Source: Eledone cirrhosa
Lineage: Eukaryota
Assembly (NCBI GenBank): GCA_964016885.1
Contig: OZ024759.1
Span: forward strand, 14,880,001-14,944,000
Length of the DNA stretch: 64,000 nucleotides
Direction: 5' to 3'
Position numbers and translations under genes: made by a program. The notes beneath the pieces were generated by a model that was not told the origin of the DNA, did no database searches, and saw only the letters and a list, made by a program, of their open reading frames with translations. The stretch's first letter is position 1; every line of letters starts with the position of its first letter. This document shows, in pieces, positions 22,398 to 63,912 of the stretch.

Positions 22398-22846
22398 GAT
22401 ATTAAATAAATGGAAACTATATTTATTTCCTTATATATATATTTCAGGGATATCATATTAACAATATGTTATGCCTTCATCAGACAAAATACAATATAAA
22501 CAGTCTTATAAATAAATAGATATGACATACCTTTCAATCGACCTGCATTTGGGAAGTTGATTTGGCAGATCAACTTCCAAATCAACTTCCCAAATGCAGG
22601 TCGATTGAAAGGTATGTCATATCTATTTATTTATAAGACTGTTTATATTGTATTTTGTCTGATGAAGGCATAACATATTGTTAATATGATATCCCTGAAA
22701 TATATATAATGAAATAAATATGGTTTTATAAATATAGTTTCCATTTATTTAATATCATAAATATACTCCAAATACTTGTTGAGTGCTTTTATATCAGTTA
22801 TAAATATTTACTCGTTGTTAACCCAACAATTTAAATATAACTTTCC
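22398..22846 (+). mobile_element. Fold-back hammerhead element, family A copy 1
   Basis: Inverted arms 22398-22565 and 22577-22756, then a 90-nt tail into (TA)n; homologous to copies at 38003, 52044, 52906 and 55285. Confidence 0.85.
22651..22716 (+). ncRNA. Minimal type-I hammerhead ribozyme motif (A1)
   Basis: TATTTTGT-CTGATGA-stem II AGGCATAACATATT/AATATGATATCCCT-GAAA-TATATA-TA|ATGAAATA; stem I pairs 8/8 allowing G-U. Confidence 0.8.
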
Positions 22847-23380
22847 ATATATGTATATATATATATATAAATGTGTGTATATATATAAATCTGTGTATAT
22901 ATATATATGTATATATAAATATGTGTGTGTATATATATAAATGTGTGTATATATATATGTATATATATATATAAATGTGTGTGTATATATGTATGCATAT
23001 ATATATAAATGTGTGTATATATGTATGCATATATATATATATAAATGTGTGTATATATGTATGCATATATATATATATAAATGTGTGTATATATGTATGC
23101 ATATATATATAAATATATGTATGTATATATGTATGCAAATATATATATATATATATACAAATATATGTATGTATATATGTATGCAAATATATATATATAT
23201 ATATATATAAATATATGTATGTATATATGTATGCATATATTTATATATATATATATATATATAGATCAATAAATATATCTATGTATGTGTATATATATAT
23301 GCATATATATATATATATATATATATATATATATATGTATGCATATATATATATATATATATATATATATATATAAAATA

Positions 23381-23573
23381 AAGGAAATGTGGTAATGAAC
23401 CAGATGGACCATAACGCACCAGAGTACGCAAGACTTAGCGTCGTAGAGTGGGAAATAGGAAAAAGTATGACCCCCGATGGCAGAGATCAGGCCGTTTCGA
23501 CGGCTATCTCTGGACTCCAGAAATAGCTGCCGAAACGGCTTGAGCTCTGCCGTCGAGGTCTTACTTTCCCCTA
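23381..23573 (-). mobile_element. Fold-back element, family B copy 1
   Basis: Imperfect palindrome 23456-23573 centred near 23515, with tail 23381-23455; (TA)n on both sides. Confidence 0.75.
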
Positions 23574-23608
23574 TATATATATATATATATATTTATATAT
23601 ATATATAT

Positions 23609-24131
23609 GATAATAAGGTCGCTGCGGAGTTGCAAATGGGTTACATGTGAAAACAGTTTGTCCTTCATCAGTGATCTTCCAACCATCATAGGCATTTCAT
23701 CGCTTTAAAGACCATATACCTCCGGTTGGTGCGAGCAACGGCTAAAAAAAGTCGTTGGGACACGTAAATAAAGGGGACGCGAGGGTAAACAAACAAAATG
23801 GTGAAGCAACAGAAAGGGAGGAAGAAAGAGACAAGTCCCAGATTTCTATGAATTTAAATTCGGTGAAATCGTGAACGAGAGAATAAAGACCCTCAAACCT
23901 GATTCTCTCGTTCACGATTTCACCGAATTTAAATTCATAGAAATCTGGGACTTGTCTCTTTCTTCCTCACTTTCTGTTGCTTCACCATTTTGTTTGTTTA
24001 CCCTCGCGTCCCCTTTATTTACGTGTCCCAACGACTTTTTTTAGCCGTTGCTCGCACCAACCGGAGGTATATGGTCTTTAAAGCGATGAAATGCCTATGA
24101 TGGTTGGAAGATCACTGATGAAGGACAAACT
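23609..24131 (-). mobile_element. Large fold-back element with 230-bp arms
   Basis: Arms 23655-23884 and 23902-24131, near-perfect; CTGATGA close to the outer end of each arm; (TA)n flanks. Confidence 0.75.
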
Positions 24132-24715
24132 TTTTATATACATATATATATATCAATAAATATATGTATGTATGTGTAAATATGTATCCATATATACATA
24201 TAAACACACATATGCACCACACCAAATATACATATGTAGTAAATTATTTTACTTGTTACAGTCAGTAGACTTCGGCCCAGCTGAGACACCACGTTGGAAA
24301 ACACACACACACACACACACACACATACACATACACACACACACACACACACATATATATATATATATATATATATATATATATATATATATATATATAT
24401 ATATATATACATAGATAGATATATACCACCTCATCAATTCATATGATACCACATCACATATGTTATAGTATTATCTTCATGTCTTTCAAACCGAATTTTG
24501 TTTTTACGATTTTTATCGTTTATATCGTCAAAATCGGAAACACAATATAAACAGGAATAGTAATATGAATTTGTAAGATTAATGATAATTCAATTTTTTC
24601 CCTCTTCGTGTCATTTATTCCATTCGTTGTTCATTTTACTTTAGCATTTATTAAGATTTTATTATTTTTACTTTTGTCATCATCTCCAGACAGTCTGTAC
24701 TGTCCAGTTATACGA

Positions 24716-25395
24716 TATATATATATATATATATATATATATATATATATATATATATATATATATGTGTATATATATATGTATATATATATATATGTGT
24801 GTGTGTGTATATATATATGTATATATATATATGTGTGTATATATATATGTATATATATATATATGTGTGTATATATATATGTATATATATATATATGTGT
24901 GTGTATATATGTATATATATATATGTGTGTGTATATATGTATATATATATATATGTGTGTGTATATATGTATATATATATATATGTGTGTGTATATATGT
25001 ATATATATATATATGTGTGTGTATATATATATGTATATATATATATATGTGTGTGTATATATATATGTATATATATATATGTGTGTGTATATATATATGT
25101 ATATATATATGTATATATATATTTGTGTGTGTGTGTGTATATATGTATGTGTATATACGTGTACGTGTATATATTTGTATGTGTATATACGTGTACGTGT
25201 ATATATTTGTGTGTGTATATATATGCATGTGTATATACGTGTACGTGTGTATATATTTGTGTGTATATATGTGTATATACGTGTACGTGTGTATATATAT
25301 TGTGTGTATGTGTGTGTATATACATATGTGTGTGTGTGTATATGCATATGCGTGTGTATATACATATGTGTGTATATATATATATATATATATAA
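24716..25395. repeat. TA/TG compound microsatellite
   Basis: Seen directly. Confidence 0.95.
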
Positions 25396-25604
25396 ATGAA
25401 GTATTTCCGTCAGAAATGTACAGGAAAAAAGAGTGCTCTATGTAGGCTACAGAGCTTATTATTTATGTAATACACAACATAAGATAGTCATTTCATTTAC
25501 CAGTGGTTTCTTGAAGAAAGACCTGGTAAATGAATTAATTATCTTATGTTGTTTATTACATAACTATATATATATATATATATATATATATATATATATA
25601 TATA

Positions 25605-62376: not shown

Positions 62377-62919
62377 GGTGGCTGCCAACTCGTTTTCGAG
62401 TACGGCCACTACTTTATATCCATGTAGGAGAACCCCTACCGATGCGCTGAACGAGTGTGACTTTTTAGTCCAGCCAGCGACTTGAAAACTCTGGTACAAA
62501 CACTACACTTGTGACAATTATTGACACCTAGTGCTGGGCCCATGGTACCATGTGATGACAAGTGCAGAGAGATATCCAGATATAAAGCAATGCCTGTGCC
62601 GTGAAGCTTTTATAGTGAGCAAAGGCACTGCACAAAGCCAATCCCACTCTCTTAACCAAGATGATATTTACCAAAAGGAAGAACAAGTCAACATCATTGG
62701 ATACCATCAGGGTTGCAGGTGTTATATCAGAATTTTCCTTCTCCTAGAATTCTGCCTTGACAAAGGCTAAGGGGTCATCTCTCCCGGAGATTTTGGATGG
62801 CCATTGACTCTTAAGAGCTCCTTTGCCCTTGGGGTTGCCAGTTTAGTCGCCAACGACCTGACCATGGGACAGGTTGCACTGGGATACATGTTACCAGTAG
62901 CACCAACTGGTGACCTGAC
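62377..62919 (-). mobile_element. Possible RTE-type 5' UTR-derived repeat
   Basis: Reverse complement ttagcctttgtcaaggcagaattctaggagaaggaaaa resembles a motif recalled from RTE 5' UTRs; GC-richer island between TA tracts. Confidence 0.4.
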
Positions 62920-63138
62920 ATACATATATATATATACATATACACACATACATACGTACGTGTGTGTGGAAAATATACTGTTGATATATCAACAGTAAGG
63001 CGTTCAGTGAGCTATATTCTAAGGGAATCAAACACGGGTAGGTTACGTAATAAATGTATTAACTGTTGAACTTGGTGAATTACTTCTGTTACATGTATGT
63101 GTGTTTGTATATATATATATATATATATATATATATAT

Positions 63139-63392
63139 AAATGAAAGGATTACAAAAGAGAATACATACTGTTAGAACATGCTTATATAAACATGTTCTA
63201 ACAGTCTATATTCTTCTTTGTAATCCTTTCATTTGTAACCGCTCTGCTTATATTCTCGCCCACTAAATATTAACGCTTCCGATATTTAACCCTGTAGGCA
63301 CAAGTATTGAGCACAAATGCACCAGCTTTTGGCACTAATTATATGTATCGCTTATCCCTTTAAACCTCTACTCTCTCACGATACTAAAATAT
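63139..63392 (+). mobile_element. Fold-back element, family G
   Basis: Arms 63139-63181 and 63192-63234; tail contains caagtattgagcac. Confidence 0.65.
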
Positions 63393-63442
63393 TCTCTCTC
63401 TCTCTCTATGTATATATATATATATATATTTTTTTTTTTTTA

Positions 63443-63650
63443 CTCGATCGACTTTCGTCAAATCGGACCGAGGAAACAATGTTTTCGTCGGTCTTTCCAG
63501 TTGCTAATACTATCTATCGGTCGCAACTCCAGGTAGAAGGAGCAACGTGAAATAAAGTGTCTTGTTCAAGGACATAACGCATCGCCCGGTCCAGGAATCG
63601 AACTCACAATCTCAAGATTGTGAATCCAATTCTCTAACCACTCAGCCACA
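63443..63650 (-). mobile_element. CORE-type (OR-like) SINE
   Basis: Reverse complement aligns along 35058-35267. Confidence 0.87.
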
Positions 63651-63695
63651 CACATTCACATATATATATATATATATATATATATATATATATAT

Positions 63696-63912
63696 AAAAT
63701 AACTTGACTTGGTTATTGTTTTCATTGTTAAATTAATATCTTATATATATATATATATATATATATATATATATATATTAGATATTAATTTAACAATGAA
63801 AACAATAACCAAGTCAAGTTATTTTACCTATTCATATCATTGTTTTACGATCGTTTCAGAGGGTTGATGATATTGACTGATCTATAGTAGGTCTATAACT
63901 GTATACCATCAG
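63696..63912 (-). mobile_element. Inverted repeat with (TA)n loop and hammerhead-like remnant (family H)
   Basis: 46-bp arms 63696-63741 and 63780-63825; reverse complement of 63846-63857 reads GAAA-CGATCG-TA. Confidence 0.6.

Follow-up and report, generated by a model that had tools for sequence, protein, structure and literature searches.

Inverted Penelope-like insertions in (TA)n tracts of Eledone cirrhosa, and a two-ended priming model for their formation

In the stretch of Eledone cirrhosa DNA analysed here (64 kb in its entirety, hereafter the window) there are about 12 segments bounded by (TA)n that carry a pair of inverted arms together with a unique tail, and the question that they raise is to which kind of element they belong and how their arms came to be inverted. 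The first-pass annotation had proposed a single layout for all of them, with palindromes made afresh at each insertion of a Penelope-type element into (TA)n, the general cause being a cDNA that snaps back and copies itself, or switches template. The layout is indeed shared by about a dozen elements, the exception being G, which is arranged tail-to-tail about its centre.

Hairpins of the window and the families they belong to

The palindromes of the window (Table 1) are confirmed as real. A strict scan for TA-anchored hairpins recovered 9 of them, against 0 in 50 local shuffles, and hammerhead cores occur on either arm of the A copies, with 13 pattern matches where 0.33 would be expected. Raw reads, which the first-pass annotation had named among its checks, agree: Illumina RAD reads of three other samples, aligned to a non-palindromic copy and, for families A and B, also checked on the window sequence, contain opposite-strand joints at the same coordinates, most of them recurring in all three libraries, and the tail-less end is joined to (AT)n in 6,077–8,937 reads per library. 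This support is at the level of the family, as the reads do not bridge the copies in the window itself, and the Logan contigs are too short to span whole elements. No RNA data set was listed as containing the stretch, a result that has no bearing on its expression. Since the raw reads of three samples carry such joints, an assembly artefact is ruled out as the source of the hairpin families.

Table 1. Elements of the window, with their arms (identical positions in brackets) and tails; coordinates are those of the window.
Element	Position	Strand	Arms	Tail	Remarks
A1 stump	22388–22853	+	22388–22565 (tail-less, inverted)/22577–22766 (sense) (175/178)	to 22853	short templated repeat between arms; hammerhead cores 22659–22700 (+), 22442–22483 (−)
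Older family B stump	23376–23571	−	within 23455–23571 (pair at 23455–23574, 81% identity)	23376–23454
Family E stump	23609–24141	−	23651–23884/23902–24135 (232/234)	23609–23650
Family H stump	25395–25564	−	25463–25503/25523–25563 (37/41)	~65 nt	short arms fold back within hammerhead region
Older A-type copy	38003–38363	−	38295–38314/38340–38359 (20/20)	present	atypical; inverted arm of 20–30 nt; arm at 38295–38359 ends short of the family's fixed outer end
A2 stump	52044–52465	+	52044–52201 (tail-less)/52215–52376 (sense) (157/157 and 2 gaps)	81 nt	hammerhead-like cores 52278–52319 (+), 52101–52142 (−)
Family B stump	52493–52691	+	52493–52541/52563–52611 (49/49)	77 nt
Solo A-type arm	52944–53076	+	no inverted partner		ends at tail-less terminus in (TA)n
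Family B stump	53354–53466	+	53354–53367/53372–53385 (14/14)	present
Family C stump	54188–54489	+	54188–54242/54286–54341 (51/55)	~150 nt	12-nt tandem repeat in loop; layout repeated at L316, L324, L328
A4 stump	55274–55722	+	55285–55445/55470–55631 (157/161)	89 nt	hammerhead cores 55534–55574 (+), 55341–55381 (−)
Family D stump	55775–56058	+	55775–55840/55905–55970 (65/66)	86 nt
Family F stump	63140–63395	+	63140–63186/63187–63233 (42/47)	~170 nt	short arms
G	63697–63837	.	47-nt inverted copy of family 3′ end		tail-to-tail around central (TA)18

Judged by their sequences, the hairpins are heavily 5′-truncated insertions of Penelope-like elements of the Hydra clade, reduced to their pLTR ends, in (TA)n. 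The Penelope-type insertion proposed earlier is upheld by the links to Hydra-type ORFs and by the TA flanks, the outer ends adjoining (TA)n in nearly all the copies listed. The genome searched amounts to 3.0 Gb, and the samples consist of the best 40 hits per search, in which young copies are over-represented. In these samples a link to a Hydra-clade RT/GIY-YIG ORF was found for 7 of the 9 families or subfamilies (A1, A2, B, D, F, H and, weakly, C); the G family likewise continues into a related ORF, and E and A4 are not tied to one. First-look counts, to be taken as lower bounds, gave 391 to 2,311 candidates per sampled family, and a protein search of the genome with part of the D RT gave 31,996. 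The D counts come from copies met incidentally, a genome search with the D end having given no hits (common words were likely skipped).

The assignment to the clade follows the motifs that define it in section 11 of PMC8557442, as far as its text was available. Family D carries the complete set (RWR, DKT, CxCX5C, CxxC and CxH), and its end lies directly upstream of an ORF of 713 aa, and also inverted upstream of truncated ORFs; the D stump of the window corresponds to the pLTR end of a Hydra-clade element that is autonomous. The ORF of A2 has RWR, DKT and CxCX5C, being truncated ahead of the other motifs, and that of B has CxxC and CxH. YRDD and GIY-YIG-like motifs are found in both the 713-aa and the 672-aa ORFs, and the neighbours in the ESM Atlas carry GIY-YIG, RVT_1 and HTH_animal; Pfam and PDB sequence searches with the D ORF returned no match. 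In the GIY-YIG core, inspected by eye, the CCHH motif was not seen. The ORFs of separate families are 37–53% identical.

Units with a partial tandem pLTR structure, running from pLTR through ORF to 3′ end, are found at L193 (D) and at L287 (A2, where the 672-aa ORF is followed by a 3′UTR), and at L010 the tail of B is followed by the start of an ORF. The arms of A1 run on into a Hydra-type ORF at L181/L182; such an ORF lies upstream in the long B copies and, for F, at L242/L247, and it is inverted upstream of H in L259/L260 (possibly one duplicated locus), as is the weak EN match of C in L323. A4 is 76–81% alike to A1 and A2, and the source unit of E is a non-coding head-to-tail repeat of ~600 bp whose ends have the same organization. 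Hammerhead cores can be recognized by eye in H and C, and in degenerate form in D and B. Support from folding is limited to stem II, with z-scores that are not significant, and among the best 150 of the 509 Rfam rows listed there is no hammerhead, the top rows being sub-threshold models of miRNA-like hairpins.

Outer ends, arm pairing and shared variants

Each family has two fixed outer ends, namely the end of the tail and an internal site situated 36 to about 170 nt inside it. The inverted arm has its outer end at −87 in A1, −81 in A2, −89 in A4, −77 in B, −86 in D, about −36 in E and about −65 in H, and the arm rarely runs through the tail instead of stopping there. In length the arms extend from 14 bp to 3.5 kb. 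The best 40 hits of a search with the arm only correspond to 32 insertions, 26 of them inverted and 6 with no partner seen; among the inverted ones, 25 join a tailed to a tail-less arm, one is doubly tail-less and none is double-tailed. The claim that one arm is always internal is in this way retained as a rule, which is broken by the both-tail copies met in tail-selected samples (L057, L059, L077 and L124) and by L271, a pair with both arms tail-less. As regards empty (TA)n sites, nothing convincing was found among the fetched loci (111 insertions).

The inverted partner belongs to the same family at 262 junctions, versus 5 that were flagged as another family; of these last, L002 is true, three are cross-matches among the A subfamilies and the fifth comes from a short match that is spurious. 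Head-to-head arms from two different families are present at L002 and L014.

That the palindromes were made at each insertion, as had been claimed, is borne out by three observations: (i) the position of the junction differs from copy to copy; (ii) the tandem source units are non-palindromic; (iii) 35 variants occur in mirrored form on the two arms, where ~2 would be expected by random pairing, a count in which one A4-type locus enters twice and from which the A1 site at −93 was left out as an alignment edge effect. Differences confined to one arm outnumber the mirrored ones by ~4 to 1. An origin of the mirrored variants in A-to-I editing of the template was rejected, A>G being the change in just 3/35.

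Two other claims of the first-pass annotation have to be given up. The stem II variants, taken to be private to each copy, are instead subfamily alleles common to many loci, and the much larger divergence supposed to exist between copies than within them is not found inside a subfamily, where divergence is 0.47–3.8% between the two arms of a copy and 0.87–5.0% between arms of different copies; the gap seen in the window reflects the subfamilies. Some segments are in fact very widely shared, such as 52270–52465 of A2, which recurs with 100% identity at 32 of the 40 loci scored, or 22650–22853 of A1, which recurs unchanged at 5 loci and, over 203 nt, at a further 18.

Inner junctions and the formation of the arms

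Of 85 short pairs, 35 have the tail-less arm extending farther 5′ and 19 the tailed one; in the other 31 the two end within 4 nt of each other. Long insertions may bear the ORF in either arm, the tail-less arm being the greater at L272 (224 vs 3,496 nt), L275 (513 vs 3,613 nt) and L181 (276 nt vs about 3 kb), and the reverse being true of L273, L279 and L288, in which the tailed arm carries the ORF; at L281, 28 nt of tail are joined to a tail-less arm of 2,328 nt with which they share zero sequence. As for the 85 junctions themselves, 41 show an overlap of 1 nt or more and 34 contain inserts, some of which are templated from nearby arm sequence; the remaining 10 are blunt. Overlaps and templated inserts are what microhomology-mediated joining would be expected to leave.

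Fold-back points fixed within each family, which the first-pass annotation had regarded as fatal to its reading, are not what is found, yet the junctions do cluster strongly: in five families the inner ends peak at one initiator-like, family-specific site, which lies, counted from the tail end, at −280 in A1, −277 in A2 and A4, −138 in B and −161 in D, with no comparably clear peak in E, H and F. A G precedes the junction in 15/31 arms that end at the peak, as against 46/256 elsewhere (Fisher p=3e-4, the data being those from which the peaks were picked). The copying of a capped 5′ end is known to leave an extra G, and the peak site is likely a capped transcript start, at which both arms would end in L140 and L284. 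From the peak site, the extra G and the promoter described within the pLTR of Drosophila virilis Penelope (in the text of PMC2377424 available), it would follow that short pLTR transcripts are likely the source of most hairpins.

The longer tail-less arms, the non-overlapping pieces of L281 and the cross-family pairs of L002 and L014 point to two RNA-templated cDNAs started from the two target strands. We consider it probable that each arm is a cDNA of its own, the two having been primed from the two nicked target strands and then joined head to head. The process could have been as follows: (i) the GIY-YIG endonuclease would nick both strands of (TA)n; (ii) of the two 3′-OH ends, one would prime at the start site at the end of the tail and one at the internal site; (iii) both cDNAs would usually be copied from the same RNA, which an RT without RNase H could copy twice by strand displacement; (iv) short capped transcripts promoted by the pLTR would give rise to the commonest hairpins, with both cDNAs reaching the 5′ end of the RNA; (v) and finally, the two free ends would be trimmed and joined via 1–7 nt of microhomology or small templated inserts. 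Given that same-family pairing is the rule, and that mirrored variants exceed the number expected of random pairing, both cDNAs were likely made on a shared RNA or RNP. The asymmetry of the arms could alternatively come from a deletion after insertion that shortened the tailed arm, and the cross-family pairs, of which two are clear, could be neighbouring insertions brought together by a deletion. A more specific version, to which we would give somewhat less than an even chance, is that a single enzyme dimer primes both (TA)n strands on a single RNA, one at each start site, so that the same stretch is copied twice up to the cap and the ends are then joined; this would be the missing step in the transposition of Penelope-like elements, and it would have produced tens of thousands of near-perfect hairpins, a possible main source of dsRNA for A-to-I editing.

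The snap-back proposed by the first-pass annotation, close to the self-priming put forward in PMC3846280 as far as its passages go, supposes a single cDNA that folds back at the 3′ end and is extended on itself as far as the tail boundary. It would fit the perfect, zero-loop hairpins that have a self-complementary word at their centre (L021, L027, L056 and L091) and the mirrored single-copy variants, and it explains the near-equal inner ends of 31/85 pairs equally well; moreover, the TA-centred inverted copies such as G, of which there are 12 among 5,125 TA runs in the fetched DNA (overlapping loci included), suggest some local self-copying and may be true cases of it at a self-complementary TA run. 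However, if the cDNA that folds is the tailed one, the tail-less arm can be no longer than it, and if it is the tail-less one, it cannot supply the tail; the mechanism is therefore strained as a general one, as it needs a second event for 35 of the 85 short pairs and for L181, L272 and L275, and again for the non-overlapping arms of L281 and the cross-family pairs. We regard snap-back as an unlikely origin for the hairpins, and as the general cause it is not supported.

Two-ended priming could also have taken place on two templates, either two pLTR copies in a tandem precursor RNA or two RNAs of one locus. Tandem units are common (the E repeats, L287 and L193) and the cross-family pairs imply that two RNAs can be used, but in many cases, such as L140 and L284, the two arms share one putative capped 5′ end as their stopping point, and the choice of tail is strictly paired (25/26), which makes this variant improbable. 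Inherited MITE-like palindromes, with arms homogenized by gene conversion, are very improbable: the both-tail copies do resemble TIR elements and mirrored variants exist, but the junctions vary between copies, the source units are non-palindromic and bear an RT, and one-arm differences prevail over mirrored ones. The terminal inverted repeats of fixed length of a MITE/TIR DNA transposon are not found either, given the range of arm lengths, the variable junctions and the tail outside one arm, and such an origin, which had already been excluded on the first pass, is refuted as the general one. Fold-back artefacts of sequencing or assembly are hardly credible and are refuted at the family level since, even if none of the reads seen bridges a window copy and the both-tail locus L003/L006 is symmetric for ~300 bp into its flanks (possibly an independent event or an artefact), the arms contain mismatches, the outer ends are fixed by family and the joints recur in three other samples.

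Known elements and wider meaning

The architecture of the hairpins is a known one, which occurs here in new families of the Hydra clade. The novelty implied by the first-pass annotation does not hold, as the layout, an inverted 5′-truncated pLTR with a tail on one side, is published for EN+ Penelope-like insertions in passages of PMC3846280 and PMC8557442. With those insertions, as there described, the present ones share the head-to-head inverted copy beside the 5′ end, the one-sided tail, the pLTR hammerhead and the AT-rich targets; in contrast, their tails measure 36 to about 170 nt instead of the published 30–40 bp, and very many copies here are pLTR-only hairpins. Inverted repeats of variable length are also reported for D. 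virilis Penelope in the available part of PMC2377424. The likeness to the Hydra clade, in the part of PMC8557442 that was available, includes a single ORF of ~700 aa, a C-terminal GIY-YIG, the motifs RW(K/R), DKT, CxCX5C and CxxC/CxH, and (TA)n targets. Its File S1 has, in the portion available, one octopus family, Hydra-1_Obim of Octopus bimaculoides, with (TA)n targets and no pLTR noted, whereas here there are several diverged families with clear pLTRs; the likeness of Hydra-1_Obim to them is one of description, not of sequence.

For the origin of the inverted layout, self-priming is proposed in PMC3846280 and the matter is left unresolved in PMC8557442 and PMC11167929, in the parts available of each, and the young and abundant families described here supply counts by which the models of the mechanism can be separated. 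The evidence favours two primed cDNAs over that self-priming and, if this is true, two-ended priming would replace it as the explanation of inverted pLTRs. In the Anolis Poseidon element PAc, both strands are nicked and extended in vitro, and two start sites on the RNA bound the tail (PMC11167929, in the sections available), all of which fits the two-ended model; there, however, the use of the start sites did not differ between strands, whereas the ends of the insertions here are almost always one of each, and those sections leave the inverted copy unexplained. Passages of a 2026 repeat annotation of O. vulgaris (PMC13282606) mention Penelope-like elements and not palindromes. In the literature searched (apart from the subscription reviews of 2005–2006) neither a two-ended priming model for such inversions nor a description of them in octopus was found.

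A comparable process is the twin priming of L1, in which the second strand of the target primes its own cDNA and the resulting inversion is joined by microhomology. In L1 the two pieces cover separate parts of the element, whereas here both cDNAs usually cover the same 3′ segment, and for this reason a palindrome is formed.

Finally, the hairpins run the risk of being annotated as MITEs or as microRNA precursors, miRNA models being the top sub-threshold rows in Rfam. Octopus is described, in passages of PMC5625713, as having an unusually high share of hairpin-forming DNA, together with hyper-editing, and the insertions described here are a candidate source of both.

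Inverted copies around TA runs

The neighbours of a TA run are copied in short inverted form at window 63697-63837, where G, the inverted copy of a family's 3′ end, stands tail-to-tail across (TA)18, and at five other loci of the same genome (L059, L187, L233, L266 and L298). These copies often have TA at both borders, and in some of them the sequence copied is flank that does not belong to the element; self-priming of nicked (TA)n could possibly have been their source.

Unusual A2 and A4 insertions

Three insertions of the A2 and A4 subfamilies of Penelope-like (Hydra-clade) pLTR hairpin stumps deserve mention. 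In an A2 insertion (L202:1100-1700) about 18 bp of flank recur on either side, outside the TA runs; if this were a target-site duplication enclosing the TA, the TA would have been added at insertion, although the repeated flank is itself an element end. The A4 palindrome at L003:1184-2356, with a tail on both arms, has a symmetry that extends some 300 bp into the flanks, from either a genomic inverted duplication or a local assembly error. Finally, in a single case, the junction between the arms of an A4 pair (L023:1330-1365) holds the element's single TAACCC and three extra units, i.e., telomere-type repeats on the cDNA 3′ end.

Other features of the window

The L276 ORF probably falls outside the Hydra clade, because it has a CX2-5CxxC linker. 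The assembly gap lies near the densest cluster of hairpins, the imperfect palindrome recurs in L073, and the SINE-like arrangements include a palindrome with 49-bp arms and without TA flanks.

Additional features and their window positions
Feature	Position	Setting	Identity
Broken fragment of another Penelope-like ORF	9539-10584 (-)		67-78% to L276 ORF
Multi-kilobase TA-derived satellite arrays	5341-8345, 12008-16687, 19524-23375, 38524-46002		
200-base assembly gap	51667-51866		
Imperfect palindrome of another repeat family	55146-55253	between TA runs	77%
SINE-like repeat, ~190 bp	3163-4400, 30290-30463	tandem and inverted arrangements
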